DNA of 64,000 nt from NCBI GenBank assembly GCA_965216755.1, contig CBDCGL010000011.1:4480001-4544000 (forward strand). The letters run 5' to 3'. The number at the start of each line of letters is the position of its first letter. The stretch's first letter is position 1. The stretch comes from Alphaproteobacteria bacterium (GTDB taxonomy: Bacteria > Pseudomonadota > Alphaproteobacteria > UBA7887). The notes beneath the pieces were generated by a model. The model searched no databases, was not told the origin of the DNA, and was given only the letters and a program-made list of their open reading frames with translations. Both the position numbers and the translations under genes were made by a program. Shown here one piece after another: positions 39,474-63,984 of this stretch.

Positions 39474-39481
39474 CGAGCGGT

Positions 39482-43277: not shown

Positions 43278-43325
43278 ATAATGTCGTTTCGGTATCGAGT
43301 TAGGCAGCGTCTGGCCGGGACCCGC

Positions 43326-44180: not shown

Positions 44181-44266
44181 CGGGCGGTCGAAACGGCGGC
44201 TCGACTTTCTCTCATTGGCATCGCCCCGAACGGATTGGTCGGGGCCAAGATCATGGGTACCTTGCA

Positions 44267-46801: not shown

Positions 46802-48637
46802 ATGTGTCAATGTGTCGCGAAGAGGTGGAGCCGGTCGTGCCTGGGGCGTATTTATGTGGTGGTTGGCACCATCGTATCCATTGTGACGGCCGGTGGGTTC
46901 GATGGCGTTGTCGACTTGGCTTTGGCGGACTCCGAGTTGTCGACGCCCTATCAGGTCGAGTTTCTTGGCATTGACGACCAAGCGTTGAGGTCGGCCATTC
47001 GGGCGGCCTCGCGTCTGGTCGCGGACCAAGAAAATCCGCCGGCGACCCCGGCGCAGCTGGATCGTCGCGCCCGACGCGATATGGATACGATCGATCAAGT
47101 ACTGGATTCGCGCGGCTATTATGGTGCCAATGCGACATTTGTGATCGACCAGTCAACCGATCCCGCAACCGTGTTCGTCGCGGTGGAGTCGGGTCCCCCA
47201 TACCCGCTGACCTCGTATCACGCGGTGGCGAAGACCGCGGATGGCATCCCGACCGTACCCATTGAGGAATTGGGTTTGATTTTGGGCGCGCCGGCTGAGG
47301 CGGACACGATTCTAGCTGCCGAGCCGGTTCTGCTCGCGAACATCAAAGCGCGTGGATATCCCTTTGCGGAAATTGCCGATCGCGAGGTCATTGTTGACCA
47401 TCTGACACCTTCGGTCACGGTCACCGTGACAATTGAACCGGGACCGCGTTCCCGGTTCGGCGACGTGAACATTATTGGTCTCGATACTGTTAGGGCAGCC
47501 GTTGTCGAGGACAATATTGCATGGACCATGGGCGAGATATATGACGGTGCGCGCGTTTCCGAGACGATACAGAACCTGCGCGAAACGCAGCTCTTCGACT
47601 CGGTTCGGGTCGACCCGCAGCGGCCCTTGCCTGGCCGCGAAGACGCCACCATGCGCATCACACTTAGCGAGCGACCCGCGCGGACGGTGGGCGCCGGTGC
47701 TGGATATGCAACCAGCGAGGGACCGCGCGTCAAGGCCTTTTGGGAGCACCGCAACATTCTGGGCGACAACGAGCGGTTGCGGATTACGGGCCGACTTGCG
47801 CAACTCGCTAGTGGTCTTGATGGCAGGCTGACAATCCCCAAATTTTGGTCGAAAAGACAGGATTTGTTACTGGGGGCTGAGCTGACGCGTGAATCGACGG
47901 ATGCGTTCGACAGCGACAATATTATTGGTAATGTGGCATTGCGACGGCACTTGACCGAAGATGTCACGGTCTCAGGCGGTGCCCAGGTTGAACGATCATT
48001 CTTGACCGAGAATGGCATTGAATCCAAGTTTACGCTGGTGTCATTGCCGCTTGATGCGCAGTACGACACCAGCAACGATCGTTTGCATCCCACCGGTGGG
48101 ACCCGATTGTCCGCGACAGTATCCCCGTATTTGCAAGCGATTGGCAGTGATCTGAGTTTTGTCAGCGTGAGCCTGTCCGGCGCCAACTACTACCAGGTGT
48201 TTGAACAGGATGGCATCGTTCTGGCCGGTCGCTGGCGCGTGGGCTCCATCCTTGGTCTTGACTTCGACGCAATCCCCACCAACAAGCGATTTTTCTCAGG
48301 TGGCGGCGGATCGGTGCGTGGGTACCAATTCCAAGACATCGGGCCGCGCGGTGGCGATGGCGAACCAGCCGGCGGCCGTTCGCTGATTGAACTGGGCGCT
48401 GAGATACGCTTTCGCGTATTCGAGGATTTCGGGATCGTCCCATTTATCGAAGGTGGCCAAGTTTTTGTCGACGAATTGCCGGACGTGCTTAGTGAATTGC
48501 AATGGGGCGCGGGGCTGGGTCTGCGATACTTCACCGCTGTTGGTCCAATTCGCCTCGACGTGGGCTTTCCTATCAACAAACGTTCGGGGATCGATGATCC
48601 GTTTCAGATCTATATCAGCCTTGGCCAGGCGTTCTAG
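46802..48637 (+). CDS. tamA: TamA (Omp85 family)
   Basis: POTRA domains, RFFSGGGGSVRGY, GLGLRYFTAVGPIRLD, and terminal YISLGQAF. Confidence 0.95.
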   Translation: MCQCVAKRWSRSCLGRIYVVVGTIVSIVTAGGFDGVVDLALADSELSTPYQVEFLGIDDQALRSAIRAASRLVADQENPPATPAQLDRRARRDMDTIDQVLDSRGYYGANATFVIDQSTDPATVFVAVESGPPYPLTSYHAVAKTADGIPTVPIEELGLILGAPAEADTILAAEPVLLANIKARGYPFAEIADREVIVDHLTPSVTVTVTIEPGPRSRFGDVNIIGLDTVRAAVVEDNIAWTMGEIYDGARVSETIQNLRETQLFDSVRVDPQRPLPGREDATMRITLSERPARTVGAGAGYATSEGPRVKAFWEHRNILGDNERLRITGRLAQLASGLDGRLTIPKFWSKRQDLLLGAELTRESTDAFDSDNIIGNVALRRHLTEDVTVSGGAQVERSFLTENGIESKFTLVSLPLDAQYDTSNDRLHPTGGTRLSATVSPYLQAIGSDLSFVSVSLSGANYYQVFEQDGIVLAGRWRVGSILGLDFDAIPTNKRFFSGGGGSVRGYQFQDIGPRGGDGEPAGGRSLIELGAEIRFRVFEDFGIVPFIEGGQVFVDELPDVLSELQWGAGLGLRYFTAVGPIRLDVGFPINKRSGIDDPFQIYISLGQAF

Positions 48638-48658
48638 GCTCTGGGTAGGCTAGCCGCC

Positions 48659-51600
48659 GTGCGCGTTCTGTTCTGGATCGTCACGGGCATTCTGGTCGTG
48701 TCGCTGGTTGCGATCGGCGGTACCTATGGCGCGCTGCAGACCAATACCGGGCGCGACTATCTGTCTGCCCAAGTCGAAGCCCTGACCCGCGGTACCGACA
48801 ACCATGTGCGGATATCCGGACTGCAGGGGCATGTGCCATTCGATTTTGCTGCCGATGAAATCTCCGTCGCCGATGGCGATGGGGTTTGGTTGACCGTCCG
48901 TGGCCTGGTGCTGGACTGGTCGCCACAATACTTGGTTGGCCGCGTGTTCCGCGCCGAGCGTTTCGCCGTCGAGGAAATTGCCCTGGATCGGGCGCCGCGC
49001 TTGTCAGCAGCGCAGTCCTCAGCGGATTCGGATGCAGACGCCGGCATGGCGATACCGCTGGGGATCGATATTCAGAGCATCCAATTGACTCGGGTCGTGG
49101 TCGGCGCCGCGCTCGCGGGACGCGATGTCGTGTTTGCCGTTGATGGCGAGGCGGCCATCGATCTACCGGCCCAACAGCTTCACGTCGCCATGAAGCTCGA
49201 CAGGTTAGATGGCGTGCCCGGGCGGGCCCGGATCAACGGCACATTTGCCACTGTTACCGAGACGCTGACTCTTGATATATCGATCGACGAGGCGGCCGGC
49301 GGGTTGCTTGGCGCGTTGGCCGGGATGCCCGATCTGCCTGCGGTCACGATGGCGTTGGCCGGCAACGGCCGCCTTGACGACTGGCAGGCAACGCTCGACG
49401 CCCGGGTGCAAGGCCTGGCTGCCGTGACCGGGCAGGCACGCTTGGCCGCCATGCCCGGCGGGCGACAGGCTGAGGCAACATTGGACGCCGATGTCGCCGG
49501 GTTGCTACCCGCCAACCTGCGGCATTTGCTGCGCGATGGCGTTCATGTCGTCGCCTCGTCTCAGTTGATTGATCGCGGTCCGATCGATATCGACCTGCTA
49601 CGTCTCGAAACAACCGCTGGCGCAGCGACATTGTCCGGAACCGTCGACATCGAAGCGCAGCGTGTTGATATGTCCGTTCAAGCCGATGTGGGCGATTTGG
49701 CGGTCGCTGCGCCGTTGATTGGACAAGACATAGCGGGACGCGCGATTCTTGAGGCCGACCTGCACGGGCCTTGGATGTCGACGGTGGCCGAATTTCGTGC
49801 GCGCGCCGATGACCTGGTGCTGACCGATGCCGCGGTCGGCACGATCACCCTTGACGGTGTTGTCCGGCCCGACGGTGGAGACTGGGGTGCCGCCGGGACG
49901 GAGATCGCAGTGAGCGCTGATGGGCACCTCGACGATGTCATGGTCGCCGGCGCCGAGACGGTTTTGGCGGCATTGGGCAACGACGTCGGACTCGCGGCAG
50001 AAGCCCGGGTAAATCAACACACGCAGCTTGTTCTTGTCGACTCTGCCACCGTGCAAACAGCGACCATGGTTCTGTCGTCGGCCGGCCGCGTCGAACTGAT
50101 GGATGGCCGCATGCGGTTCGCCGTGCGCGGTGAGGTGCCTGACTTGGTGCCGTTTGCGCCACTTGCGGGCACGGCACTCGCCGGCGGCATCGGCCTCGAT
50201 GCCGAAATTGAGTTTGGCCAGGCGATGCCAGCAGTTATCGCGTTCAGCGTCGACGGCAAGGAGATGCGCTCAGGCGTCCCGTTCGCTGACGCTTTGATTG
50301 GGACGGCACCGATGGTGGCCGGGGTCGCGGAGATCGATCCCGGGGGCGCGGTGACCGTACGCGAAGCCCGATTGCAAGGGGCGTCGGTGTCGGCCGATGT
50401 TGCGGGCACGCTTGGCGCCGACGGCCATGTTGATGCGATGGTTCAGGCAGCATTGCCCGAACTTGCCGCGCTCAGCGATGCCACCGGCATGGGCGTGGCC
50501 GGCTCCTTCGATGTCAGTGCCGCGCTTAGCGGGACAGTCGCGGCGCCTGCCGCGGTGGTCGATTTCGGATTGCGCGACGCCGTGGTCGACCAATCTCCGC
50601 CGTTGAGCGCCACGGGGCGTATCCATGCCGCCGATCTAACGGGAGCGATTAACGGTCGTGCAGCAATCAATGTAGGCCTTATGGATACCGAAACAACGGC
50701 TGCGTTTGACTATGCCATGGTTGAAGAGGCTGTGTTGATCGACGACATCACGGTCGATGCGACCGCATTGAGAATAGGCGGCGACCTAAGCGTGCCGCTC
50801 AATGGTGGTGCGGCAATTGGCGCGTTGACCGGTCAGGTGACGGATCTGAGCCCCTGGGGCGCGTTGGCGGGTGTAGATGCCGGCGGCCATGTTAGGTTTG
50901 ACTTGGCCTTGCGCGCCGATGCCGGCGGCCAGGGTTTCCAACTCGCCGCAAATGGCGAATCGCTTGTGATGGCCGACAACCCGGTGTCGCTTGCCGCGGT
51001 GGCCGTTAATGTCACGGGCCGTCCCGATCAGTTCGAGTTCGACGTTGACCTTGATGGCAATCACGACCGTCCGATTTCGCTGCAGAGCGCCGGCAACGTG
51101 GCGCGGACATCCGACGGCGGGCAACAGCTGCGGCTGGCTCGGCTCGACGGCCGATACGGAGATATTCCCGTGCAACTCGCCGAGACGGCGGTGATCGATT
51201 TTCTGGGCGGCGCGGTTTCCGTTGAGAATTTCGCGGCGACGGTCGCGACCGGCACCGTGCGCGCACGTGGCCGCTACGGTGAAGAACGCATCGTCTTGAA
51301 TGCCGCGCTCGCCCAACTTCCCGTTGCGCTGGTGGCGCCGGACATTGCCGGCACGGTGGACGTGCAGATTGACGCGGATTTGACGGCAGGTTCACCACGA
51401 CTCGATGGCCGGGCGGAGCTTGTCGGCCTGCGCGTGCAAGATGACTCGATAGGGCCGTTGCCCGGGATCGATATCGGCGCAGACTTGACTTGGCAGGGGC
51501 AAAGTGCGGCCGTTGACATTGCGGCCACTGGCGTGCCCGGTGCCACGATCAGCGCCGGTTTCAGCCTGCCGCTGGGCACCGACGGCGTATCACCCTTGCC

Positions 51601-52915
51601 ACAATGGTCCAGCTCAGGAGAACTAAAAGGTCATGTCTCGGTCGATGCCGCCTTGGAGAAGTTGGCCTTTTTGATTCCGGACGAGAACAGTGTCGTACGT
51701 GGGGCACTGGCGGTTCAGGCCGATATTACCGGCAACATCGCCGAACCCGAGGTTCGCGGGACCACGGCCCTGAGCGGCGGCTATTACGAGAATGTTGCGA
51801 CGGGCACGATTGTCGACGATATCGAGCTGCGGATCCAAGGTGACGATCGTCGGATAACGATTGTCGAGCTCACGGCAAACGATGGTGGCGACGGTCGGAT
51901 CAACGGACACGGGCATATCGACTTGGATGCCGCGACTGATTTCCCGGTTTCATTTGATGTCGAGTTTGATCGCTTTGAAGCTCTGCGCAGCGACGATGCC
52001 ACCGCCGCGGCGTCGGGGGCGCTAGCGGTGCGCGGTCCGACCACGGCGCTTGCGCTAACGGGCGGTGTTACTGTCGGACCCGCGGAAATCCGCATTCCGG
52101 ATTCTGCGCCGGCGGGGGTCACGACATTGGATGTGATCGAAGTTAACGGCCAGGAGGGCGCCGGCGATGACATAGCCCAGCGGGAGCCGAAACGGGAGTC
52201 GCCAATCGCACTGGATATCGATATCAATATGCCCGGCCGGGTGTTCGTCCGTGGTCGCGGCCTGACTTCGGAATGGCGGGGACAACTCAGCGTCACGGGA
52301 ACGAGCGATGCGCCGCTGGTGCTCGGCACCTTACAGGTCGTACGGGGGCAATTCGAACTGATCGGCCGGCTATTGGACCTGGAACGTGGGGTGATTACTT
52401 TTGACCAGGCGGCGGTCAATGACCCGGGGTTGGACATCCGCGCGGTTGGCGACGCGGATGACATCATTGCAGTGATCTTGGTCTCAGGGCGCGCGTCGGC
52501 GCCAGTGTTGGAGTTGACCAGCGAGCCGCCGCTGCCGTCAGACGAAGTTCTGGCGCGGGTCCTGTATGGCAAGAGTGTCGGCAACCTCTCACCCATTCAG
52601 GCTTTGGGCGTGGCTCGCGGCCTGGCCACTTTAACCGGCGTGGGATCGGGTCCCGGGTTTTTGGACAAAGTACGCGGCGTCACCGGGCTTGACACCTTGG
52701 ACGTGCAGTCGGGGGGCGAAAGCGTTGACGAGGGTCGGTTGCGGGCCGGGAAATATATCGCTGATGGGGTTCTGTTGTCCGTTGAGCAAGGGCTAGCTCA
52801 GGGTAGCACGCGCGCCACATTGGAAGTGGATATCACACCAAATATTTCAGTTGAAACGAATGTTGGCGCCGATGCCCAAACTGGGATTGGCGTCAACGTC
52901 AAAACCGACTATTGA
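48659..52915 (+). CDS. tamB: TamB (DUF490)
   Basis: N-terminal TM, long beta-taco body, VFVRGRGL, SEPPLPSDEVLARVLYG, and AGKYI. Follows tamA. Confidence 0.93.
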   Translation: MRVLFWIVTGILVVSLVAIGGTYGALQTNTGRDYLSAQVEALTRGTDNHVRISGLQGHVPFDFAADEISVADGDGVWLTVRGLVLDWSPQYLVGRVFRAERFAVEEIALDRAPRLSAAQSSADSDADAGMAIPLGIDIQSIQLTRVVVGAALAGRDVVFAVDGEAAIDLPAQQLHVAMKLDRLDGVPGRARINGTFATVTETLTLDISIDEAAGGLLGALAGMPDLPAVTMALAGNGRLDDWQATLDARVQGLAAVTGQARLAAMPGGRQAEATLDADVAGLLPANLRHLLRDGVHVVASSQLIDRGPIDIDLLRLETTAGAATLSGTVDIEAQRVDMSVQADVGDLAVAAPLIGQDIAGRAILEADLHGPWMSTVAEFRARADDLVLTDAAVGTITLDGVVRPDGGDWGAAGTEIAVSADGHLDDVMVAGAETVLAALGNDVGLAAEARVNQHTQLVLVDSATVQTATMVLSSAGRVELMDGRMRFAVRGEVPDLVPFAPLAGTALAGGIGLDAEIEFGQAMPAVIAFSVDGKEMRSGVPFADALIGTAPMVAGVAEIDPGGAVTVREARLQGASVSADVAGTLGADGHVDAMVQAALPELAALSDATGMGVAGSFDVSAALSGTVAAPAAVVDFGLRDAVVDQSPPLSATGRIHAADLTGAINGRAAINVGLMDTETTAAFDYAMVEEAVLIDDITVDATALRIGGDLSVPLNGGAAIGALTGQVTDLSPWGALAGVDAGGHVRFDLALRADAGGQGFQLAANGESLVMADNPVSLAAVAVNVTGRPDQFEFDVDLDGNHDRPISLQSAGNVARTSDGGQQLRLARLDGRYGDIPVQLAETAVIDFLGGAVSVENFAATVATGTVRARGRYGEERIVLNAALAQLPVALVAPDIAGTVDVQIDADLTAGSPRLDGRAELVGLRVQDDSIGPLPGIDIGADLTWQGQSAAVDIAATGVPGATISAGFSLPLGTDGVSPLPQWSSSGELKGHVSVDAALEKLAFLIPDENSVVRGALAVQADITGNIAEPEVRGTTALSGGYYENVATGTIVDDIELRIQGDDRRITIVELTANDGGDGRINGHGHIDLDAATDFPVSFDVEFDRFEALRSDDATAAASGALAVRGPTTALALTGGVTVGPAEIRIPDSAPAGVTTLDVIEVNGQEGAGDDIAQREPKRESPIALDIDINMPGRVFVRGRGLTSEWRGQLSVTGTSDAPLVLGTLQVVRGQFELIGRLLDLERGVITFDQAAVNDPGLDIRAVGDADDIIAVILVSGRASAPVLELTSEPPLPSDEVLARVLYGKSVGNLSPIQALGVARGLATLTGVGSGPGFLDKVRGVTGLDTLDVQSGGESVDEGRLRAGKYIADGVLLSVEQGLAQGSTRATLEVDITPNISVETNVGADAQTGIGVNVKTDY

Positions 52916-52925: not shown

Positions 52926-55421
52926 TCAATCGGCAGAAGGCGGCGTCTGTGACAGGGCCAGTGGCGCGGCAGCCAGCGCCGGCGGAAAGTCTCCGATATG
53001 GTAGTTGTGGCATTCCGTGCAGCGATCGCCGGCCAGTTCATGCTTATGGCATGCAGCGCAGGTTGATTTGTCCAATGAACGGAAATTACTCGCGAATTGG
53101 GCGGGTTGGCGGTGGTCAAAACTGGCCATGTACGCTGCTGCCGGATCCAGGATGTGGCAAGTGAGGCATCCGGCCTCGTTCAACAGGCTGAAATGGGGGA
53201 CATGCGCGTAGACGCTGAATCGCTTGTCATTTGGCTGTGGCGGCACGGTCAGCCAATTGATGAGGAACCCGCCATTTTGGCCCTTGCGGTCGTCGACGCT
53301 GTGGCACTTGGTACAGGAGCCGACTGTTTTTGAGTTGGTGAGTAGTTGTGCCAGCGGTGCGCCAAGGGGATCAGCGCCGCCGATCATGCCGGACAGGTCA
53401 AGCCATGCGCGCATGAACCCGTCGGCATGATCGCCAGGTCGGTAATACAAGCCATAGTCTTGCCGATACCAGCCGCCAGCATTGCTCCAGGCTTCTGGGG
53501 CGACCGGCCTTAGCGCTTGCGGCAGCGGTGTCACGTCCACGTCCGCCACCGGCGCCGACGCGCGGTCGTTGCTGTCCGGCATGTCGCCCGCGTTGCCGTC
53601 CGAAAGGCTGATTTCATCGTCGTCTGCCAGCAGTCCTTCGTCCCCCAGTAGGTCGCCGTCGTTGCCCAGCAGGTCGCCACCGTCTGCTAGCAAATCATCG
53701 CCCAGCAAATCACCATCGTCCGCCAGCAGATCGTCGTCGAGCAGGCCGCCAAGGTCGCCATTGTCGGCTTCCGCGGTCGGTGTATCGAATAGGGTCTCGG
53801 CATCGTCAGCGGCGCCGTCGCTGTCGAGCAGGCCGCCAAGGTCCAGCTCTTCCGTTGTTTGGGCGGGCGTCTCGGCAAGGTCACCAGTCGCCTCCGGTTC
53901 CGACACGTGGCTGGCGATTTCCGAGGCCGTTGGCCCCATGACGATGTCGCCCGCCGCGTGGCGCGCCAACTCGGTGCCCAAGTCTGGAAACCACTCGCTT
54001 TGTGCCGCCAAGACGGCATCGGTTGGCAGCATGCCGATCAATGATGCGACTTGGTCACTTGTTAGCTGTCGCCCAGCCACTCGTGACAGTCGATCGGCAT
54101 ATGCGTCGTGGCCGTCGACGACAATTGACCCGAGCATTTTTTTGACGCCCCACGCGACGCGGGCGACGGCGGCCAATTGGTGGTCGTCTGCGTCCAACAA
54201 ATCGAGCAGGTCCAGCGTCGACACCTCGTCCAGAGCGTCGGCGACATCGGGGTCCGCGGCCAGTAGCACACGCACGAAGGGCGTGATCGGGCCGTCGGCA
54301 TAATAGGGCCAATGGCCGATCTCAACATTGCGGGCGTCGAGGGTCTGCAGGTCCAGACCCGGCAACGCAATAACCGGCAGTCCTTTGACACCCGCGCGGC
54401 CCTCGCCGGCGATTTGTTTGCCGTGGCACGCGCGGCAAGTTTGGTCGAAGTCCTTCACCAGCATGTAGGCTCCGCCCGTGTCGGGTTCATGGCAGCCGGT
54501 GCAGGCCGTTGGCGCGTCGACGGTGTCCGGTTCCCTAAAATGCTTACCGATATGACCGACATGGTCGAAAATAATCCGCGTTCGCCTTTGATAAGGAAAC
54601 GACTCAAACTGCGGATGACCCTGGACAAACGTATCAAATGCTCTTTCGTGACATGTGTGGCAGTGCAGGTTGGAAATCTCGTCCAAGGTATAGCGCTGCC
54701 CGTGATGCTCTCGATGACACGTTGAACAGGCCAAATCTTGGTCCTTCGGCTGTTGGCCGAATACGAACTTGGCCACTGTCGGCATAATTGAAACTTGCTG
54801 CGGTCGTGGCATGTTCTGCAAGCGGGTCGTGACCGGCTTCAATGTTTCCGGCGCCAAGCTGTGTGCTTTGGTCGCGTAGTTGCCAAGCCGATGGCACGCA
54901 AGACATGGCGCGCTGTCTTCCGCTGCGCTCCGCGGTAAGAACGCTGCCTGCAGCCAGCCAATAAGTCCGTGCTCGGAACCAGTGTGGCATCCGTCGCAGG
55001 TCGCCACGTCGCCATGTTGATAGGTCACTTCGCCGGGCACGACCACACGCTCCGCCAGGCGACCATTGAGCAGTAAGAGGATGGCACCAACGGTCAGGCA
55101 CACAAGCCACAGTGTTGTCAAACCGCGTCGGGCACGATCACTACGTTTGGGGACGCAGCGGTCTATCGGACGGGCGCAGCGACCATCAGGAAGCGGGCCG
55201 TCGGTGCAACGGCCGCCATATTGCGGTGCACGCGTGCACGACCATCGATCGTCGGTATTGAGTGGAATGCATTCAAAATCGGCCCGGCATTGGCCACGCA
55301 AATCCGGTCCGATCCGGCATGTGCGACCGTCTTGGGCGCGTCCGCAGACCCATGGCTGCGACGGCCGTTCATAAGCACTTTCGCGGTGACCAAACCGCTG
55401 CCAAAGGGATGACATACTCAC
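52926..55421 (-). CDS. membrane-anchored decaheme c-type cytochrome with N-terminal Cys-rich repeats
   Basis: Ten CxxCH motifs (CDGCH, CLACH, CSTCH, CHTCH, CTGCH, CRACH, CTKCH, CLTCH, CAACH, CTECH) after a single TM helix; 8 further Cys before the TM. Confidence 0.9.
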   Translation of the reverse strand: MSMSSLWQRFGHRESAYERPSQPWVCGRAQDGRTCRIGPDLRGQCRADFECIPLNTDDRWSCTRAPQYGGRCTDGPLPDGRCARPIDRCVPKRSDRARRGLTTLWLVCLTVGAILLLLNGRLAERVVVPGEVTYQHGDVATCDGCHTGSEHGLIGWLQAAFLPRSAAEDSAPCLACHRLGNYATKAHSLAPETLKPVTTRLQNMPRPQQVSIMPTVAKFVFGQQPKDQDLACSTCHREHHGQRYTLDEISNLHCHTCHERAFDTFVQGHPQFESFPYQRRTRIIFDHVGHIGKHFREPDTVDAPTACTGCHEPDTGGAYMLVKDFDQTCRACHGKQIAGEGRAGVKGLPVIALPGLDLQTLDARNVEIGHWPYYADGPITPFVRVLLAADPDVADALDEVSTLDLLDLLDADDHQLAAVARVAWGVKKMLGSIVVDGHDAYADRLSRVAGRQLTSDQVASLIGMLPTDAVLAAQSEWFPDLGTELARHAAGDIVMGPTASEIASHVSEPEATGDLAETPAQTTEELDLGGLLDSDGAADDAETLFDTPTAEADNGDLGGLLDDDLLADDGDLLGDDLLADGGDLLGNDGDLLGDEGLLADDDEISLSDGNAGDMPDSNDRASAPVADVDVTPLPQALRPVAPEAWSNAGGWYRQDYGLYYRPGDHADGFMRAWLDLSGMIGGADPLGAPLAQLLTNSKTVGSCTKCHSVDDRKGQNGGFLINWLTVPPQPNDKRFSVYAHVPHFSLLNEAGCLTCHILDPAAAYMASFDHRQPAQFASNFRSLDKSTCAACHKHELAGDRCTECHNYHIGDFPPALAAAPLALSQTPPSAD

Positions 55422-55424: not shown

Positions 55425-56249
55425 TTACGAGAACGCATAGACCAGGACAATATGAACCAAGATGAGGATCAGAAGCACGGTGCTGACTGGCACGTGGACA
55501 AACTGCCAACGGCGCAACAAAGATTGCATCGCGTATTGAAAATCCAAGTCGTCTTTTGTGCGCACCAAATCGGCAAGCTGGTCCATCACGGCGCACTCGC
55601 CAGCGTCCAGATAACGTTCGAGGCCGCGCATTTGATTGAGCAACCGGGTGCGTGGTCGGCCGGACAGCATGGCGTGGCGCCAGAAATTTCGGGGCCGATC
55701 AAAAAAGCTATGCAACTGGTCGCTGTAATAATCCGCGATCGTCGTCGAGCGGGCGTCCTTAACAGAATTGATCGCCAGAGCTTCGGCTTGCGTCGCCAGT
55801 TTGCGCCGGTAGATCGGAATCCGTTCGTAAACGACATTCTCACCCCGCACAGACAGCCGGGGCGGCACGGCGCGGAACAGAAGCCAACCGACCAAACCGC
55901 TGGCGACGACGAAAGCAAAAGCAATGGCGAGAACGGTTTCGAACGGCCCGTCCGGTACTTGCCAGTCGACGTGCACGCCGAAGAGAAACGCACAGACCAA
56001 GCCGATATAGACGTGCAGTTGCAGCCAAGCGGACGACGAACCCAACGGCAAAAACGGCAACCGCCGGCGAATTTGATAGCAAGCCAAGAAGAGGATCGTC
56101 AGAAACAATGTCCAGCCGGTCAAGAATGATGGATTGCGCAGCGTCGATGCATAGATCGCGTGCACGCCGGCGAGTACGATCACGATCACAACAGCCGTCC
56201 CCGCATGCACCATTCGGCGCCTGGCAAAGGTGATCATCTGTGGATCCAA
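55425..56249 (-). CDS. integral membrane protein, probable diheme cytochrome b (ferric-reductase-like TM domain)
   Basis: About five TM helices, with two H-x13-H pairs (HVYIGLVCAFLFGVH and HVPVSTVLLILILVH). Confidence 0.75.
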   Translation of the reverse strand: MDPQMITFARRRMVHAGTAVVIVIVLAGVHAIYASTLRNPSFLTGWTLFLTILFLACYQIRRRLPFLPLGSSSAWLQLHVYIGLVCAFLFGVHVDWQVPDGPFETVLAIAFAFVVASGLVGWLLFRAVPPRLSVRGENVVYERIPIYRRKLATQAEALAINSVKDARSTTIADYYSDQLHSFFDRPRNFWRHAMLSGRPRTRLLNQMRGLERYLDAGECAVMDQLADLVRTKDDLDFQYAMQSLLRRWQFVHVPVSTVLLILILVHIVLVYAFS

Positions 56250-57946
56250 GCCATCAACTTGTCCGGTGTTCTGAGATCGATGCGAACCAAGGCATCATTC
56301 GGACACGCGCGCTGGCACGCGGGACCACCCAATTGATCGGCACAAAGGTCGCATTTGGTTGCCCGCTCGATGGGCGCATTGGTGGCCTGATCGATGACGA
56401 ATTCGCCAGCCCGATTACGGATGTTCACCAACCGAATATTATTGTAGGGGCACGCACTCGCACAGGTCCCACAACCGATGCATGTGTCGTCGTTGATCAC
56501 CACAGTGCCGCCCTCTGTATCGCGGTGGATCGCGCCGGTTGGACAGCCGATGAGGCAGACCGGATCGACGCAATGCATGCAGGCATTGGCGATCATGAAA
56601 TGATCATAGTGCGGGCCGTGGCGGACAAATCGCGGGTTGTTGCCATGCGCGGCGGCGCACGCGCGCACGCATTCGTCGCAGCGTGTGCACCGGTCGACGT
56701 CGATGACCATAGTCTGTGTGCCGTTAATAAACCGATTGTCGACCAAAAACTCCAGCATGGCCGACTCGATGCGCCCTTCGGACGTGCCACGCTGCCACGC
56801 CGATTGAACGCCGCTGCGGGTTTCAACCGGTTCCGGCAGCGCCGCGGCCGGCATGGTTGGCAAAATGTGGTCGGCGACCAGATCACCGGGGATGCGCAGC
56901 ACGTCGACATATCCTGTCGCGCGCATGGTGCCTTGGAATGAAATCTGCTGATCGTTACGCCAATTGTGGACGATTTCCCTCAGGCCGAACGTGCCCCCGG
57001 GGCCCAAATAGCCGACCGTGCGATGGCCGTGGTCGACCCGTTCGGTGACCCGCGCAAATCCCGACCGCACAATAATCAAGCTATCGGCGTGTTCATCTTC
57101 GCCAGCGATAATCGGCTCGCCGGCGAGCCTTTCAGCATGTGTCCGTTCGCCCGCTGCCTTGTAGGCCGTGTACCATTCGAAACTGCCATAAGAGGCAAAC
57201 TGCGTGCGCGGCGCAATCTCCGCGATTTGCCCGGGGGTCAGGTGGGAGAGCAGGGGTGTGTCGCGAAGCTGGGCCGCCAAACTGCGCTCGCGATATAGCT
57301 GATCAATCTGTTCACGAAACTTGCGATCGCGACGGCGGATATCACGCAGACCTTGCCATCGAATTTCCAGCAGCTCCGAATCGCCGTCGGCGTAGATCGT
57401 TGCCGTTCGAGGCGCGCGCGATATGGCGCCAATCTCGCCGAACATTTCGCCCGCGCCTATGAGGGCGGTCCGATGGTTCTTCGTCACTTGCGCCGGATCG
57501 GGCAACGCGACGCGGATATCGTCGTCACCGTCGCCACGGACAATGACTTGCTCGCGCCGTCCCAAGTCACGGACTTCCGGTTGGCCAGGGTTGTTCCAAA
57601 GCTGGCTGATCGCCGACCACATCCCCCGCCGACTCGCTTCTTGGCGACCCAACGCTTTGGCAGGTAGCCGTGGGCCAAGCACGACCCGCGCGGCACCGGT
57701 CAGCACAACAAACGCCGAATTGCCATAATCCTCGGCGCGCACGACAATGTCGCCATAGCTATAACTGCGAATGCGCGTGTCATTGCGGATGATATCGCGC
57801 AAAGGCGCTGTATCTGGGAAGCTTGACGGATCGACTTGGGCAAAGGGATCGTGCGCCAAAACGCGATCAATGTCGGCTTCCGACATCGACGTGCTAAACG
57901 GATTTTCCCAACGGTCCGGACGATGAATTTCTACCGGTCGCGCCAT
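56234..57946 (-). CDS. two cyclic-nucleotide-binding domains fused to a four-cluster 4Fe-4S (DmsB/NrfC-type) module
   Basis: GEMFGEIGAISRAPRTAT phosphate-binding cassette and a second degenerate cNMP domain. Sixteen Cys: CTRCDECVRAC, CMHCVDPVCLIGCP, CIGCGTCASACP, and CDLC...PACQRACP. Confidence 0.9.
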   Translation of the reverse strand: MARPVEIHRPDRWENPFSTSMSEADIDRVLAHDPFAQVDPSSFPDTAPLRDIIRNDTRIRSYSYGDIVVRAEDYGNSAFVVLTGAARVVLGPRLPAKALGRQEASRRGMWSAISQLWNNPGQPEVRDLGRREQVIVRGDGDDDIRVALPDPAQVTKNHRTALIGAGEMFGEIGAISRAPRTATIYADGDSELLEIRWQGLRDIRRRDRKFREQIDQLYRERSLAAQLRDTPLLSHLTPGQIAEIAPRTQFASYGSFEWYTAYKAAGERTHAERLAGEPIIAGEDEHADSLIIVRSGFARVTERVDHGHRTVGYLGPGGTFGLREIVHNWRNDQQISFQGTMRATGYVDVLRIPGDLVADHILPTMPAAALPEPVETRSGVQSAWQRGTSEGRIESAMLEFLVDNRFINGTQTMVIDVDRCTRCDECVRACAAAHGNNPRFVRHGPHYDHFMIANACMHCVDPVCLIGCPTGAIHRDTEGGTVVINDDTCIGCGTCASACPYNNIRLVNIRNRAGEFVIDQATNAPIERATKCDLCADQLGGPACQRACPNDALVRIDLRTPDKLMAWIHR

Positions 57947-57967: not shown

Positions 57968-59020
57968 CTAGCGGGCTGGCTTACCCTTGTAGCTTTCCGG
58001 CGCGGGAAGCAGGGCATCGAGCCCGGCAAGGTCGGCGCCGTCATTGGATTCGGCAAATTGTCGTGCGGCGGCTTCGATCTCATCGGCGGCCGCGTTCAGC
58101 GCATCCGCGTTGTTCAGCTTGAGTTTGACGCTGCCCGCGACCGCCAGCATGGCGTCAACCTCGGCAATCGACGCGGCTTTGCCGATTTGCTGCAGCCGCT
58201 GAGCCGCGGTCTTTGCCCGTTTTGCCATTGCCTTTGCATAGTCGGCGTTGGCCGTCGCCTTGGCGACGCCGCGCAGGGCGAATGTCAGGTCCAGGGCGCG
58301 CCCGACGACATACATGACGCGCTTGCGCGCGTCAGTCGCCTCGCGATTGGCTTTGCCTTCGGAAAACCAAATATTGTGACGCACTTCGCCTTGCGACCAG
58401 GCAACGAGCTCAAAAGCGCTGCCAGCCGGGTGGCCGCCTTCATTGACGAGTTTTTCCTCTGGCACGGTATGGCAGCCATAGCAGTTCGATGCCCAATCGA
58501 CGATCCACAACGGCCGGATCAATCCGGCAGCCTCGACCGTTGCTAGTCGTTCCGCCTTATGTTCAGGTGTCTCCGATTCTGCGGTGACATCCTTGCCGCC
58601 AAAATCGCTGTGGGGATCATTCCAATCCTTGGCCGCGCCGTGGCACGATTCACAACTGATTCCGGCAATTGCTTTTGTTTCACCGTCTGAAACAGCTTCG
58701 GTGAAATGACAACTCAGACAAACGCTCTCGTCTTTGATGCGGCGCAGGCCCAGCTTGTCGGCGATTTCGCGGGCCTTGTCCTCGCGCGGCATGGTCGTAA
58801 AGGTCTTGGCGTGATGCGTCTCTCGCCACACTTCGACCTCTTCCTTATGGCACTCGCCACACGTGTCGGGCCCCAGCACCATGGCCGGATCAGTTGCCGC
58901 ACCCCCAGCCGCGGCCGGTGCGGCCCAAAGCAGCATCACACCGCCGGCAACGGCGGCTGCCGCGCTGGCAAGTTGATTGTCCATGCCAGGACTTACACTC
59001 AAGGACATCTTGACCGGCAT
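57968..59020 (-). CDS. periplasmic tetraheme cytochrome, c554-like
   Basis: RBS GGGAGG, signal peptide, CGECH, CLSCH, GISCESCHG, CYGCH, and a C-terminal helical domain. Confidence 0.88.
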   Translation of the reverse strand: MPVKMSLSVSPGMDNQLASAAAAVAGGVMLLWAAPAAAGGAATDPAMVLGPDTCGECHKEEVEVWRETHHAKTFTTMPREDKAREIADKLGLRRIKDESVCLSCHFTEAVSDGETKAIAGISCESCHGAAKDWNDPHSDFGGKDVTAESETPEHKAERLATVEAAGLIRPLWIVDWASNCYGCHTVPEEKLVNEGGHPAGSAFELVAWSQGEVRHNIWFSEGKANREATDARKRVMYVVGRALDLTFALRGVAKATANADYAKAMAKRAKTAAQRLQQIGKAASIAEVDAMLAVAGSVKLKLNNADALNAAADEIEAAARQFAESNDGADLAGLDALLPAPESYKGKPAR

Positions 59021-59135: not shown

Positions 59136-60404
59136 TTACGCATCAAGAACCAAGTCGGTCTTGGGAATCGCGATGCATGTCAGGCACGTACCGGCTTTGA
59201 CCTCGGCGGTCGGCTCAGTCAGATAGGTGACTTCGCCCGTCCGGATTGCCGTCACACAGGTTCCGCAATTGCCGACCCGGCAGCCAAAATCTATGGGTAC
59301 GGTGTTGGCTTGCGCCAGATCCAAAAGCGATCCTGCCGCGCCAGTCCATTTCGCCGTGCGGTTTGAGCGTTCAAAACTCACGGCCAAAGGGGTCTCGTCT
59401 TTGTCGTCGGCGACACCGGGTGCAGCGGCGCCTTGGACGCTGGCCGCCGCAAACGCTTCGCGATGCACGCGATCGTCCGGAACGCCCCATTTTCGGAGAT
59501 CCCCGCTCACTTGGGTCATCATCGCGGGCGGCCCGCAGATAAAGAAATCGTAGTTGGACGAGGGCAGTGTGTCTTTCAGATGATCGATCGAGATATGGCC
59601 CTTCAGATCGTAATCGGACTCGCCGTCCAGTCCCGGCCGTGGGCTGCTATAGGCGACGGTGACGTGAATGTTTTCGTTATCCAGATCAAAATCGCGTAGG
59701 CGCTCTTTGGTAAGATGCTCCAAGCCATTGCGCACACCGTAGAAAACCCAAACTTCACGCTTGCTGCCTGTTTCCACAATCGCGTCGAGCATGCTCAATA
59801 TGGGCGTGATGCCGATGCCGCCGGCGATCAACACCAAAGGCGAGTTTTCCAGCGGATCGATCGTGAAGTTGCCGCTGGGCGCGATCACGTCGATCAGGTC
59901 GCCCGCGTGCATGCCCCGATGCAAATGATTGGAAACCAGCCCCTCCGGCGCCGTATCGTTCTTGGCCGGGGCGGCCAGTCGCTTGACAGTGATTTGATAC
60001 TCGTCCGGCTCCGGCGTCCATTGCGACAGTGAATAGCAGCGCACCACCGGCCGCGGCTGGTCTTTCATGGCAAACCGAAAGGTCAGGAACTGGCCGGGTC
60101 GGTACGGGGGCAGGGGGCGATGATCGTGAGGCACCAAGCGAAACGAGGCGATATTGTCCGCTTCCGGAACGACTTCCGAGATTTCGAACTTGCGATAACC
60201 GCTCCAGCCAAAATTGACCCGATCCGTTTCCCCCTGAGTGGTCGCGGCCGCGGCCATCACATTTTGCCTGAGCACTTCCAGGGACAAGCGCCGCCGGTCG
60301 CGTTCGAAGGTCGAGCGCCTGGCAGATTCGACCAGCATCATCGTGGCTTGCGCCAATACCAACGCGATGATCAAGGCACCGGCAATTTGAACCAGCAATG
60401 CCAT
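59136..60404 (-). CDS. membrane-anchored FAD/NAD(P)H-binding reductase with C-terminal 2Fe-2S domain
   Basis: N-terminal TM, PGQFL, RCYSLS, GLVS, IAGGIGITP, FFICGP, and CRVGNCGTC...C. Confidence 0.92.
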   Translation of the reverse strand: MALLVQIAGALIIALVLAQATMMLVESARRSTFERDRRRLSLEVLRQNVMAAAATTQGETDRVNFGWSGYRKFEISEVVPEADNIASFRLVPHDHRPLPPYRPGQFLTFRFAMKDQPRPVVRCYSLSQWTPEPDEYQITVKRLAAPAKNDTAPEGLVSNHLHRGMHAGDLIDVIAPSGNFTIDPLENSPLVLIAGGIGITPILSMLDAIVETGSKREVWVFYGVRNGLEHLTKERLRDFDLDNENIHVTVAYSSPRPGLDGESDYDLKGHISIDHLKDTLPSSNYDFFICGPPAMMTQVSGDLRKWGVPDDRVHREAFAAASVQGAAAPGVADDKDETPLAVSFERSNRTAKWTGAAGSLLDLAQANTVPIDFGCRVGNCGTCVTAIRTGEVTYLTEPTAEVKAGTCLTCIAIPKTDLVLDA

Positions 60405-60468
60405 CACGCGCGTGGCTCCTTGGTTGGTCTTGACGATGGGACGTTCACGGCAGCCAGACCGAGTAGAA

Positions 60469-61887
60469 CTAGAACTTAACCTGAATCTCGGTTCGCGCGC
60501 CAAAACCGGCGCCCTCTGTCTCGGTCATCGAGCCGAACAAATCCAATTGCCAAAACGCCTGATTGTGAATTTGCAATTGATAGCGGCCGCCCAGCGCAAA
60601 CGCGTCTGAGTCAGACCCGTCGGCTGATTTCCGCGCGCCAAACTCAAGCACCAATTGTTCACGGTTGTTTGGGACCAAGAACCATTGGTGGCCGACCGAA
60701 AACCCGATAACGTCCTTGGCGCGATTGCTGAGCGCCGAACCAAAACGGCCGAGGCGCTGCGACGCGAACAGGATTCCGGCGCGTCCCAGCGGCCCGCCGA
60801 CCTGCGGATCACGGGCGGCCATGGTGAATTCATCCAATGCTGCGAACGCGGTGGCGTAGAGAATGTTGTCCGTACCCAAGGGTGTCGTCGACACATCGGC
60901 GAATAACAGATAGCCGTCCTTGGCAGCACGCGTGTCGCCGTCGAATGCCTGCGAGGTCATGAAGCGAAACGACGATGTCCAAAGCCCGAAACGTTGTACC
61001 GCGCTGAGACCCAAATAGGCCGCGTCACCGCCATTGTCGTCGGACGCCACATAGATTGCGTCCAAAGCCACGGTGCTCTTGTAAAAATCCGCCTCGTTGA
61101 ACAGCCCAAACAATTGCGCGTTGCTGTCCACGTCACTGTCGCCGCGGCTCACCTCGCCCCAACCATAAAGCCCAGAGACCCGCAAGTTCGCGCCGCCGGG
61201 AACGGTCAGGGAATTGCGCACGATGCCAATCGAGTCGAGCGCGGTATCGTCGATCAGGATCCCTTGTTGATAGGAGATCGCCTGACGCCCGACCGCAAAG
61301 CCATAGTCGAGGGTGCCGGAATCGTCCCGGTCCAGGTCGGGAAACAGTTCGCCGAAATCGCCTTCGAAAAACAGGGTGCGCACGTTGCCGTTGAAGCTTT
61401 CAAACGAGCCGCGCTCTGAGTCCGGCCCCAGCGTATAGCCGGTGTAGTTGACGCCTTGTCGCAACGGGTTGATTCCCAACAGCAATCTTTCCGTGCCCGT
61501 GAGCTGCAGATTGGCAAACAGATCGAGCGAGTTGGCCCATTCGGTGATTGGCTTGCGATCACCGCGGTCGAAGCTCTGCAAAGCCGTACGATAGGTTCCA
61601 AAGACCCACAAGGACGGTCGCCAGACGGCGCCGGTTGGCAGTTCCCAGCCCGGCTCGATATTGCCGACTTCCAGGAACGGGTCGCCAAATATCACCAGTG
61701 GTTTCGCCTGTGGCGGCAGCTCATCGACGACGTAGGGTACGGGCTCATCGGGTAGACTACGGCCGTAGATGCTGACCGCCGCGTCAACGGACCCGCATTC
61801 GAACGCCACCCATCCCGCCGCTCCAGCGATCGCCCATGCTGTAAAGTGCCACCGTCGGCGACACCAATCGCCCACCCGTTCCGCCAT
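60469..61887 (-). CDS. putative outer-membrane beta-barrel (porin-like)
   Basis: Signal-like N-terminus, alternating aromatic/polar beta-strands, GRQ motif, and C-terminal beta-signal TEIQVKF. Confidence 0.72.
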   Translation of the reverse strand: MAERVGDWCRRRWHFTAWAIAGAAGWVAFECGSVDAAVSIYGRSLPDEPVPYVVDELPPQAKPLVIFGDPFLEVGNIEPGWELPTGAVWRPSLWVFGTYRTALQSFDRGDRKPITEWANSLDLFANLQLTGTERLLLGINPLRQGVNYTGYTLGPDSERGSFESFNGNVRTLFFEGDFGELFPDLDRDDSGTLDYGFAVGRQAISYQQGILIDDTALDSIGIVRNSLTVPGGANLRVSGLYGWGEVSRGDSDVDSNAQLFGLFNEADFYKSTVALDAIYVASDDNGGDAAYLGLSAVQRFGLWTSSFRFMTSQAFDGDTRAAKDGYLLFADVSTTPLGTDNILYATAFAALDEFTMAARDPQVGGPLGRAGILFASQRLGRFGSALSNRAKDVIGFSVGHQWFLVPNNREQLVLEFGARKSADGSDSDAFALGGRYQLQIHNQAFWQLDLFGSMTETEGAGFGARTEIQVKF

Positions 61888-61907: not shown

Positions 61908-63842
61908 TTATTCGATTTCAAACTCGACTATCTTACGAGCGGCGACCGTGTGTCCGTCAACCAGGGCGTCGCCGACCGATCGTGGGCTCATGTTGAAGTC
62001 GAAGCCGACATCTTGAATTGCGTGGATCAAGTTTATCGGCACCATGCCAACAACGATTTCGACCTCAGCCGTGTAGGGACCGTAAACAATTAGTTCTTCA
62101 CCCGGCACCGTATAGGCGGTGCGGCGGCTGCCGAGCGGTTCGATGCCGCGCTTGTGGATGCGCGCGCTAAGTGGCCGACCGGTCAGAATGGTCGACCGTG
62201 TCGCCGGGCGAACAAACGGCAGCACATCGAGTGAATAGTTGGCGGCCAAGACTTGCTCGCGTTCGCCGCCGCGATTGTTCAGGGTCACAAAAAACGATTG
62301 CAGGCTATACAGCTGATCATCCAGCGGCACATCGCCACTGAGCACCAATTGCGAATGGGAATCGCGCAGGTCGCCGTTGCTGTCCAGGTCGCCAGAGACG
62401 AACACGGGTTGATCATCGCTGTCATATACGGTCACCCGCAGCCAGACGAGACGTTCCGCAATAAAGCCGGTCGGCACATTGTGTCCGTCGGTCCCGTTCC
62501 TAATTTCGACGTTGAGGCGAATGCCGTTGCGATCAGCTTTTTCAATGATCACCTCGCCGATCTTGAAGCCGGCACTGAGTACTTCTTGGCGCTTCGCCTT
62601 GGCCCAGGCGAGCAGCTCGAATTGGTCATCAAGGATATCGCGCGCGTCATAGCGATCATCGATCGTGCGCCAGCGTTCCGGAAATGTGTAATCCTCCGGC
62701 ACGTTGTCTTCGAACGAATCAGTGCCCCAACCGGCCTCATAATCGAACGTCAGCCACTCCTCCAACGTGGCCATGCGCGCGGCTTCGACATTGTGCGGAA
62801 AGATCCCCGGATGCACGATTGAATGGTCCGGACCGGCGAAATAATGATTGGTCAACTTGCGCGGCTCTGTCGCCACGCCGCCGATCTCTGCCGCCGGCCC
62901 GTGTTCGTATCCGGACACCACGCCCTGCACCTTGCCCATATGGCAATCGTGGCACGTGGCGCCGCCATCGGCACCGCTATTGCGCAAATCGTTGGCCGGT
63001 GACGTCTTGAATTCACTAAATGCTTCTTCCAGTCGAAACCCGTTGGGCAGTGTCACATCGTGGCAGGTACCGCAAAAGCCCGGCTCGACCATCTGGAAAA
63101 AACGTTCGGCCTCGGTGTGGATCTTGCGACCCGGCTGGTCCGCGTCGGTGACCACTTTGTAACGATTCCGGTTGTCGAGGACCCGATTGAGTTCGTCACC
63201 CCCCGTTGGGCCGCGCACCGGCTTTAGGATGTCGCCTTGGTCGATGGCCATGCGACCACTGATCTTGCCATACGCTTGGCTGACACGATGACAGACCACG
63301 CAGGTGATGCCTTCGCGTGACGTGGGATGCCGGTCGAGATTGTTAGTGGCGATGCCTTCGCCGAGATTCATGCCCACCTGGTTGTGACAGCGGATGCAGA
63401 AGTCACCCACCGTGCCACTCAGGCGATCATAGCTAAATCTCTGCATGGCCATGTAAATTGGGCTCAGCTGGGCATAGGAATGTTGTGAGACGGACCACTC
63501 GCGATAGTGTTTCGGGTGGCAGGTCATGCAGGTCGTCGCCGAGGGGTAGCGATCTTCCAGAAACAGGGCTTCGTGGGCCGCGGCCGCAGTCGAACCCGCT
63601 AGCGCACCCGGTTCGTCTTCAGCTTCAGTATCAGCGTCGGCCGTCGGTTCATCGAGTGGTACTTCGTCGTCGCCGAGCAAGTCGTCGCCACCCAAAAGGT
63701 CGTCGCCGCCGAGCAAGTCATCATCTGCAAGCAGCGTGTCGTCGCCAAGTAGGTTGTCATCTTGCGCAAGACTTGGCCCGGCCAAAGTAAGCGCCGCCGC
63801 CATGCCGATCGCCATAGCAACTCGCGAGAACCTGATTTGCAT
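61908..63842 (-). CDS. exported pentaheme c-type cytochrome (c554/c-prime-like N-terminal region) with acidic repeat
   Basis: Signal peptide ending SLA-Q; CMTCH, CIRCH, CVVCH, CGTCH, CHDCH; YREWSVSQH; GHNVPTG in a beta-rich C-terminal domain. Confidence 0.9.
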   Translation of the reverse strand: MQIRFSRVAMAIGMAAALTLAGPSLAQDDNLLGDDTLLADDDLLGGDDLLGGDDLLGDDEVPLDEPTADADTEAEDEPGALAGSTAAAAHEALFLEDRYPSATTCMTCHPKHYREWSVSQHSYAQLSPIYMAMQRFSYDRLSGTVGDFCIRCHNQVGMNLGEGIATNNLDRHPTSREGITCVVCHRVSQAYGKISGRMAIDQGDILKPVRGPTGGDELNRVLDNRNRYKVVTDADQPGRKIHTEAERFFQMVEPGFCGTCHDVTLPNGFRLEEAFSEFKTSPANDLRNSGADGGATCHDCHMGKVQGVVSGYEHGPAAEIGGVATEPRKLTNHYFAGPDHSIVHPGIFPHNVEAARMATLEEWLTFDYEAGWGTDSFEDNVPEDYTFPERWRTIDDRYDARDILDDQFELLAWAKAKRQEVLSAGFKIGEVIIEKADRNGIRLNVEIRNGTDGHNVPTGFIAERLVWLRVTVYDSDDQPVFVSGDLDSNGDLRDSHSQLVLSGDVPLDDQLYSLQSFFVTLNNRGGEREQVLAANYSLDVLPFVRPATRSTILTGRPLSARIHKRGIEPLGSRRTAYTVPGEELIVYGPYTAEVEIVVGMVPINLIHAIQDVGFDFNMSPRSVGDALVDGHTVAARKIVEFEIE

Positions 63843-63984
63843 CGGAAAATTCCCCGTTCCCTGACGTTTCCGAGCTTGCAACTTTGCCCTGAAACCGATC
63901 GACTCTCCACCACGTCTCATTATACGGCGATCGTGTTGAACCCGACCACCTCAACGCCATGTTAGGGGGCATGGCGCGCCTATC

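Follow-up and report, generated by a model that had tools for sequence, protein, structure and literature searches.

PtdE of the ptdABCDEFG operon, a four-cluster ferredoxin joined to tandem cyclic-nucleotide-binding domains and a candidate for a switchable redox relay

The window analyzed here, a 64,000-nucleotide stretch of an alphaproteobacterial contig (CBDCGL010000011.1, assembly GCA_965216755.1), carries at 56234..57946 on the minus strand the gene ptdE. Reading of the open reading frame (ORF), its translation and its Pfam matches showed that ptdE starts with ATG and encodes a cytoplasmic protein of 570 residues, in which two cyclic-nucleotide-binding (CNB) domains, CNB-A and CNB-B, are followed by a four-cluster ferredoxin domain. 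The plus-strand frame at 56234-57946 is riddled with stops. A preliminary description of this DNA had located the gene correctly and had left its strand unstated. PtdE is a member of the ptdABCDEFG operon, as established by synteny. All seven ptd genes lie inside the window on the minus strand, with gaps of 20, -35, 115, 21, -16 and 3 nt from ptdA to ptdG. Within the cluster, ptdE has the tetrahaem cytochrome gene ptdD on one side and ptdF, which encodes a membrane protein, on the other; ptdG, ptdC, ptdB and ptdA complete the set.

The occurrence of the ptd genes was counted in the 80 best of at least 566 relatives in a one-genome-per-species collection; many of the neighbours missing from these loci reflect contig ends. 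The first gene, ptdA (61908..63920; 42 of the 80 loci), encodes a pentahaem cytochrome c with five CXXCH motifs. It is followed by ptdB (60469..61887; 44 loci), which encodes a porin-like outer-membrane protein ending in Phe. PtdB has no Pfam match, and its nearest Atlas cluster carries the automatic name 'Porin family protein' (score 0.99). The product of ptdC (59136..60503; 67 loci) is a membrane-anchored FAD/NAD(P) reductase (Pfam FAD_binding_6, NAD_binding_1 and Fer2) with an N-terminal transmembrane (TM) segment and a C-terminal [2Fe-2S] domain. The product of ptdD (57968..59020; 73 loci) is a tetrahaem cytochrome c with a signal peptide, four CXXCH motifs and a match to Cytochrome_C554. 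On the other side of ptdE, ptdF (55425..56249) overlaps it by 16 nt and encodes a protein of 274 residues with five TM helices and two invariant His-x13-His pairs. This gene follows ptdE in 79 of the 80 species-level loci, which span at least eight phyla or classes. The last gene, ptdG (52926..55421; 77 loci), encodes a decahaem cytochrome c with ten CXXCH motifs, a TM helix at residues 99-124 and an N-terminal 8-Cys domain.

The operon named ptdABCDEFG in a preprint (bioRxiv 10.1101/2023.11.21.568154) agrees with that of the window in the order of its genes and in the type of all seven proteins. The accessible part of that source lists the products as a pentahaem cytochrome, a porin, a FAD/NAD(P) reductase, a tetrahaem cytochrome, a CNB/Fe-S protein, a 'ferric reductase-like' membrane protein and a decahaem cytochrome, and reports that ptdAB are highly transcribed in oxygen-deficient-zone bacteria. 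The same part holds no analysis of the PtdE sensor domains, of cyclase linkage, of fusions or of docking. A literature search that did not extend to subscription journals returned this preprint as the only source naming ptd, and no paper on a ferredoxin regulated by cyclic nucleoside monophosphates (cNMPs).

The preliminary description had taken the gene as an isolated oddity. However, it is part of a named seven-gene operon and belongs to a known, uncharacterized and well-conserved family. An exhaustive search of 1.84 billion 50%-identity representatives returned 7968 matches at E ≤ 1e-3, of which 593 reach E ≤ 1e-30. A word-indexed search scored 8000 candidates, of which 4570 proteins reached E ≤ 1e-3, and its 120 best matches are proteins of 543-630 residues with PF00027 and Fer4 families. 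Among 574 listed pattern matches (one genome per species), at least 566 encode PtdE relatives. The 80 best loci belong to Alpha-, Beta-, Gamma- and Zetaproteobacteria, Planctomycetota, Verrucomicrobiota, Nitrospinota, SAR324, Acidobacteriota and a metagenome-assembled genome (MAG) labelled Flavobacteriales. The nearest genome orthologues in this sample come from Alphaproteobacteria MAGs and have 62-63% identity to PtdE. Cultured carriers of ptdE include Nisaea denitrificans, Ferruginivarius sediminum and Hwanghaeella grinnelliae. The window's genome has a single ptdE copy.

The protein collection lists a shorter, 550-residue product of ptdE (P0002; 100% identity, 96% coverage) that begins at Met21 and omits the segment encoded at 57887-57946 on the minus strand. 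The 570-residue start was preferred, because a conserved motif, R-P-x-R-W-D-x-P-F, occupies residues 9-17 (57896..57922, minus strand). Alignments showed that R9, P10, W13, D14, P16 and F17 are at least 90% conserved in 33 sequences, and each is retained in 56-74 of the 91 sequences of a conservation set made of 50%-identity representatives. The motif indicates that the longer version is the real one. Neither a hydrophobic or TM segment nor a signal peptide was found in PtdE, and its N terminus as read lacks a twin-arginine leader; PtdE was thus placed in the cytoplasm. The AlphaFold2 model of the whole protein has a predicted local distance difference test score (pLDDT) of 92.6 and a predicted template modelling score (pTM) of 0.89. 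Pfam detects cNMP_binding (PF00027) in two stretches (83.1 bits, cut-off 27.5) and Fer4_11 at residues 449-552 (43.1 bits, cut-off 26.2), and VIA-align splits the model into three domains at residues ~14-228, ~214-383 and 407-570.

The ferredoxin domain (residues 407-570; 56237..56728, minus strand) was assigned from matches to HycB3, ArrB and HycB and from the conservation of its Cys residues. It contains exactly 16 Cys, arranged in four groups of the C-x2-C-x2-C-x3-C type (C420/423/426/430, C456/459/464/468, C489/492/495/499 and C532/535/544/548). These residues are invariant in 33 of 33 homologues, and the full set is present in 79 of 80 genome orthologues. As the sequence contains four complete Cys motifs, PtdE is expected to hold four [4Fe-4S] clusters rather than the two with which it is credited in the accessible part of the preprint (bioRxiv 10.1101/2023.11.21.568154). 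The four-cluster signature and the absence of a signal peptide had both been noted in the preliminary description, and the four motifs and the lack of a hydrophobic segment bear this out.

Sequence comparisons of the ferredoxin domain matched HycB3 (7qv7_A, E 1.6e-16) and ArrB (E 1.3e-15). Structural comparisons by VIA-align gave Z values of 11.6 for ArrB and 11.5 for HycB, within a range of 10.9-11.9 and 30-36% identity for ArrB/HycB/PsrB-type subunits. The earlier naming of the domain as a DmsB/NrfC-type ferredoxin therefore stands for the fold and the 16-Cys pattern, but the closest relatives are the cytoplasmic HycB/HydN types. PtdE scores far under every NCBIfam cut-off, with 61.6 against 214.1 for DmsB, 50.5 against 377.6 for NrfC, 57.7 against 263 for HybA and 64.1 against 260 for HydN, and in another example 65.3 against 1003. 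The fold and the 16-Cys pattern are shared with the known four-cluster subunits (HycB/HydN, the N terminus of AegA, DmsB, NrfC, HybA, FdnH, PsrB and ArrB). In comparison with these subunits, PtdE carries an additional 400 residues of sensor domains, lacks a twin-arginine signal and has no adjacent catalytic partner of the molybdo- or tungstopterin, NiFe or NrfA type. Pfam and NCBIfam detected no such family (Mo/W-bis(pyranopterin guanine dinucleotide), NiFe or NrfA) among the proteins of the ptd operon.

Both CNB domains are predicted to have full CNB folds. CNB-A (residues ~45-231; 57254..57814, minus strand) was assigned by alignment to MloK1 and by PDB sequence matches to the regulatory subunit RI-alpha of cAMP-dependent protein kinase (PKA). 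Superposition of model residues 14-228 on the MloK1 CNB domain (2k0g) aligned 138 residues with a Z of 14.9 and a root-mean-square deviation (rmsd) of 3.0 (VIA-align). The phosphate-binding cassette (F169-T183; 57398..57442, minus strand) reads F169-G-E171-I-G-A-I-S-R-A-P-R180-T-A-T183 and each of its residues has a counterpart in both PKA RI-alpha cassettes, in agreement with its earlier description as intact. Of the 91 sequences, 89 keep G170, 81 keep E171 and 82 keep R180, and 87 have T or S at position 183. The preliminary description had proposed a check of cassette conservation among orthologues; the G-E...R triad is whole in 73 of the 77 species-level orthologues with coverage. That description had also taken the Thr after the cassette Arg as an indicator of cGMP. 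However, the next position is occupied by T in 35 of the 91 sequences, by S in 19 and by another residue in 37, and S or T is also found there in cAMP-binding CRP, MloK1 and HCN, so the Thr does not point to cGMP in PtdE. The beta-barrel of CNB-A contains an insertion of ~65 residues (92-160; 57467..57673, minus strand), which was recognized in the alignment and bears the conserved motifs L-G-R and Q-L-W...P-E-x-R.

CNB-B (residues 236-395; 56762..57241, minus strand; best Pfam stretch 276-356) is divergent. Model residues ~214-383 superimpose on CNB-B of cGMP-dependent protein kinase (PKG) II (5bv6) with a Z of 15.4 and an rmsd of 3.5 over 141 aligned residues (VIA-align), and the domain has no PDB sequence match at E ≤ 0.1. 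Conservation counts showed that its cassette region (F320-G345; 56912..56989, minus strand) is expanded and degenerate, as had been described: T319-F-G-L-R-E324 is followed by a longer loop and then by M-R342-A-T. G321 is kept in 90, E324 in 71 and R342 in 61 of the 91 sequences.

A Foldseek search with the PtdE model returned tandem-CNB structures of PKA regulatory subunits (PKA-R) and PKG as top matches (6rsx, E 2.5e-16; 1rl3; 4z07). Like these proteins, PtdE has two CNB domains in tandem. However, the output of PtdE is a covalently attached electron-transfer domain and not a kinase, its CNB-A has the ~65-residue insertion, and its CNB-B lacks a canonical cassette. It is somewhat favoured that the pair forms a PKA-R-like tandem regulatory module, in which CNB-A would bind a cyclic nucleotide from a cyclase that several lineages encode beside the cluster. 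The CNB fold of PtdE also resembles the CRP-family sensor domains of DNR, Clr and FixK2 (VIA-align), as would be expected of a CRP/FNR-type transcription factor regulating the operon. This reading is extremely improbable and was rejected: no helix-turn-helix family is among the 13 Pfam matches of PtdE, its C terminus is a ferredoxin, and the complex model described below puts PtdE on a membrane protein.

The model of PtdF has a pLDDT of 92.7. H79, H93, H252 and H266, which make up the two His-x13-His pairs, are invariant in 69 of 69 sequences, in an alignment that omits locus L014, which has a stop codon in the chosen start region. Structural comparisons by VIA-align gave a Z of 12.6 with a designed two-haem bundle, 10.6 with HyaC, 9.3 with FdnI and 9.2 with SpNOX, at a noise level of ~13 for helical bundles. 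The model has no Foldseek match at E ≤ 1e-3, no sequence relation of PtdF to FdnI or HyaC was detectable, and its only Pfam match is a weak one to DUF4405 (E 0.0015). The neighbouring Atlas cluster of PtdF carries the automatic name ferric-reductase-like. Two independent proteins, P0125 and P0141, are in-frame fusions of PtdE and PtdF, with E values of 2e-59 and 2e-50 against the PtdF of the window. The N terminus of PtdF was placed inside because of the positive-inside rule and because these fusions join the C terminus of PtdE to the N terminus of PtdF. With this orientation, the two His of each pair lie near one membrane face each, which fits two stacked b haems. The two invariant His pairs of PtdF are expected to bind two b haems, one close to either side of the membrane.

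A complex model of PtdE and PtdF scored 0.65, whereas the best of three controls scored 0.00. The mark that this score passes was attained in 58 of 80 solved complexes and in 2 of 110 mismatched pairs; these counts are approximate, as our own alignments were used. The model runs share at least 92% of their contacts, and the pLDDT of the partner is at least 82. On the PtdE side, the interface is formed by Cys motifs I and IV (417-433 and 535-552) and by a helix of the CNB-A insertion (residues 109, 112-113 and 115-116). On the PtdF side, it consists of three cytoplasmic loops (62-76, 125-141 and 242-246) that lie next to H79 and H252. The model supports docking of PtdE on the cytoplasmic face of PtdF. 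Against this, the model was built without cofactors and its score of 0.65 expresses the confidence of the model itself only. Complexes of the FdnH-FdnI type have been solved, and part of the pass could come from likeness to them. A di-haem membrane partner, as proposed here for PtdE, is also that of FdnH in FdnH-FdnI. The docking ends differ, in that PtdE is modelled with its motif I/IV end on PtdF, whereas DmsB-type subunits turn the II/III end towards their anchor. Judging from genomic context, natural fusions and the complex model, it is likely that PtdE docks on PtdF and that both carry electrons across the inner membrane, between PtdC on one side and PtdD, PtdG and PtdA, with the porin PtdB, on the other.

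To find cyclases, the 33 cyclase domains of the window's own genome were made into a profile, with which the 80 loci were searched. Class III cyclase ORFs were found in 17 loci, in each case directly upstream of the first ptd gene and less than 1 kb away, and none was found elsewhere in the ~617 kb of flanking DNA of the loci. Upstream sequence of 1.5 kb or more is available at 55 loci, among them these 17, which comprise 15 of 25 clusters that begin with ptdC and 2 of 21 that begin with ptdA. The adjacent cyclases have three architectures: a CHASE2-cyclase in a Kiloniellales MAG, a 7TMR-DISM-cyclase in SAR324, and a type of 585 residues divergent from ptdC in Planctomycetota. On a quick tree of PtdE, from which 4 of 81 rows were left out for having under 450 aligned residues (one of them cyclase-linked), the cyclase-linked loci occupy three places: a single Planctomycetota clade, in which they make up 14 of 22 rows, and two branches apart from it. 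In the window's genome, a class III cyclase of 1106 residues with AAA_16 and TPR domains is encoded on the minus strand 4.1 kb past the window end (L085 820-4140), two genes upstream of ptdA. Since this genome contains 33 cyclase domains in 5.0 Mb, the proximity to ptdA is weak evidence alone.

One position of class III cyclases, which we take to specify the purine, is presumably Lys in adenylyl cyclases. The neighbour cyclases of loci L008 and L038 have Lys there, those of Planctomycetota have Asp, and that of the window has Gln; a second motif that we take to set specificity was not found in several of the sequences. Because of the Asp and Gln residues, the ligand may not be cAMP, which weighs against the simplest form of the proposal. 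The Planctomycetota cyclases divergent from ptdC (L043 4656-6413, minus strand, and 13 further loci) share the motifs (V/I)-x-D-Y-(Y/F)-G-D-G and R-(L/M)-K-Y-G-P-x-G-x-x-V-N, and may make an unusual nucleotide.

These residues bear on a reading in which CNB-A is a true sensor of a ligand other than cAMP or cGMP, such as a cyclic pyrimidine, another nucleotide or nucleoside, or a metabolite, with the same control of the wire as output. CNB domains of PycTIR, which bind cUMP, are among the matches of PtdE (8jsj_A, E 2e-05, by sequence; 8jsk_B, Z 13.6, by VIA-align), the nucleoside-binding PKA-R of trypanosomes is in the Foldseek list, and the adjacent Planctomycetota cyclases have their non-canonical residue at the purine-specifying position. 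However, the Glu and Arg of the cassette are canonical for a cyclic phosphate, and the cyclases next to L008 and L038 have the Lys of the adenylyl type. A ligand outside cAMP and cGMP is thus considered quite unlikely.

Relatives of unusual length point to further inputs. Among 18 scanned odd-length PtdE relatives, 8 contain FHA domains (P0126, P0127, P0142, P0145, P0188, P0228, P0233 and P0249), placed at the N terminus, inside CNB-A or between the CNB domains. Another five (P0171, P0178, P0184, P0206 and P0219) have an N-terminal extension of ~350 residues without a Pfam match. The FHA insertions suggest that the N-terminal half of PtdE acts as a signal-collecting module.

In the proposed path, electrons would pass from NAD(P)H to PtdC (FAD and [2Fe-2S]), through the four clusters of PtdE to the two haems of PtdF, and on to the periplasmic cytochromes PtdD and PtdG and then to PtdA and PtdB. 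Outward flow from NAD(P)H to haem would be downhill in redox terms and aided by the membrane potential. An unregulated conduit would drain reductant and membrane potential, and control would therefore be needed, as in NADPH oxidases. In the NADPH oxidases NOX5 and SpNOX and in MsrQ-type proteins, cytoplasmic NAD(P)H and a flavin feed two stacked b haems through which electrons cross the membrane, and in NOX5 a fused sensor serves as the switch. The proposed Ptd path is alike in outline. However, Ptd distributes these functions over several proteins and places a four-cluster wire between the flavin and the haems, PtdF has five helices, and the acceptor would be a chain of multihaem cytochromes and not O2. 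Known porin-cytochrome conduits are fed by the quinol pool by way of CymA, ImcH or Cbc proteins, whereas Ptd has its own input module of NAD(P)H reductase, Fe-S protein and haem b, provided with a sensor. As in MtrCAB and Pcc, a porin and multihaem cytochromes are co-encoded in ptd, a comparison also drawn in the accessible part of the preprint (bioRxiv 10.1101/2023.11.21.568154).

The switch itself is the less certain part. A cyclic nucleotide bound at CNB-A would move the domain, including the insertion at the PtdF interface, and would thereby alter docking or the access of the donor. Because the conserved CNB-A insertion sits at the predicted interface, a post-translational switch was proposed. 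On the complex model, it is possible, at rather less than an even chance, that the ligand alters the coupling of PtdE to its partners and so switches electron flow. From the sequence, gating of PtdE by a cyclic nucleotide is plausible. The proposal withstood the checks open to sequence analysis, and the upstream cyclases, the FHA domains of relatives and the modelled docking on PtdF lend it support from context. The explanation as a whole, that PtdE is the cytoplasmic Fe-S relay of the Ptd conduit and is switched by a cyclic nucleotide, falls a little short of an even chance. It is proposed tentatively, with the balance clearly on the side of doubt, that PtdE is the first cyclic-nucleotide-gated redox wire, in which the messenger of the neighbour cyclase acts at CNB-A to toggle post-translationally a conduit from NAD(P)H to the periplasm or cell surface.

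Several observations weigh against such a switch. The cassette Arg is lost in 4 of 77 orthologues that keep the operon, by R to Q in L003 and by R to H in L011, L021 and L071, the last three being Geminicoccaceae-type loci. The genomes of these four orthologues retain 15-39 cyclase domains, which shows that loss of the Arg does not follow loss of cyclases; with one control included, cyclase domains (2-39) were found in five of five genomes and showed no correlation. No cyclase is adjacent at 38 of the 55 assessable loci, and unrelated genes lie upstream at three Planctomycetota loci without a cyclase that were checked. CNB-B is degenerate. The match lists of PtdE also hold NtcA, DNR, the KCNH CNB-homology domain and the cAMP-independent PKA-R of trypanosomes, and within the CRP/FNR superfamily there are also CNB folds that bind haem, 2-oxoglutarate or nucleosides, or that have no ligand. 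The operon was assigned no function in the accessible part of the preprint that named it (bioRxiv 10.1101/2023.11.21.568154).

Some of these observations would fit a constitutive wire under transcriptional control only, in which the CNB domains are structural and, as scaffolds or docking modules, keep PtdE attached to PtdF, to PtdC or to the cytoplasmic Cys-rich head of PtdG. The insertion helix of CNB-A at the predicted PtdF interface, the degenerate CNB-B, the four orthologues without the cassette Arg and the loci without an adjacent cyclase all accord with this. However, if the domains were purely structural, there would be no explanation for the retention, by 73 of 77 orthologues from different phyla, of the Glu and Arg that contact the ligand, or for the position of three cyclase architectures exactly upstream of the cluster; this reading is considered unlikely. 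The signal could also run in reverse, with the Fe-S domain sensing redox and altering the cNMP affinity of the CNB domains or their binding to another target, so that PtdE would be a transducer from redox to second messenger. FNR couples a CNB-like fold to an Fe-S sensor, and PtdE was modelled as one rigid unit. However, the HycB-type four-cluster wire fold points to through-transfer, as do the fixed adjacency and fusion to the predicted di-haem membrane protein and the flanking NAD(P)H reductase, and PtdE has no output domain; a reversed signal is therefore very unlikely.

Cyclic nucleotides are known to act on respiratory and extracellular electron transfer through transcription, as cAMP does with CRP in Shewanella. 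If the proposed switching of PtdE is true, a sensor built into the redox wire would be a new and fast layer of control, and Ptd would be a bacterial counterpart of the regulated NADPH oxidases in hundreds of marine, soil and freshwater species. In some relatives, the FHA domains would add phospho-threonine signals to the switch. The substrate of the conduit and the signal that opens it bear on marine iron and nitrogen cycling, and a genetically encoded, ligand-switchable electron path could be of use in bioelectrochemistry.

Residues 1-95 of PtdG, ahead of its single TM helix, contain eight Cys (C26, C35, C45, C51, C62, C72, C82 and C89), which are retained in 60-63 of 60-65 covered orthologues. 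This N-terminal domain is probably cytoplasmic. It may form a metal or Fe-S site, or serve as a docking head on the side of the membrane where PtdE lies. Long acidic repeats rich in Asp, Leu and Gly (DDLLGGDDLLG type) are found in PtdA at residues ~55-85 and in PtdG at residues ~520-620. Elsewhere in the window, a Tad/Flp pilus set (CpaB, secretin and a TadA-type ATPase) lies at 35205-44920 on the plus strand. It is followed at 46802-52915 by TamA/TamB, which converge on ptdG. A protein resembling the His-Xaa-Ser repeat protein HxsA is encoded at 8636-10615 on the plus strand and adjoins a di-haem enzyme of the MauG/MbnH-like type.

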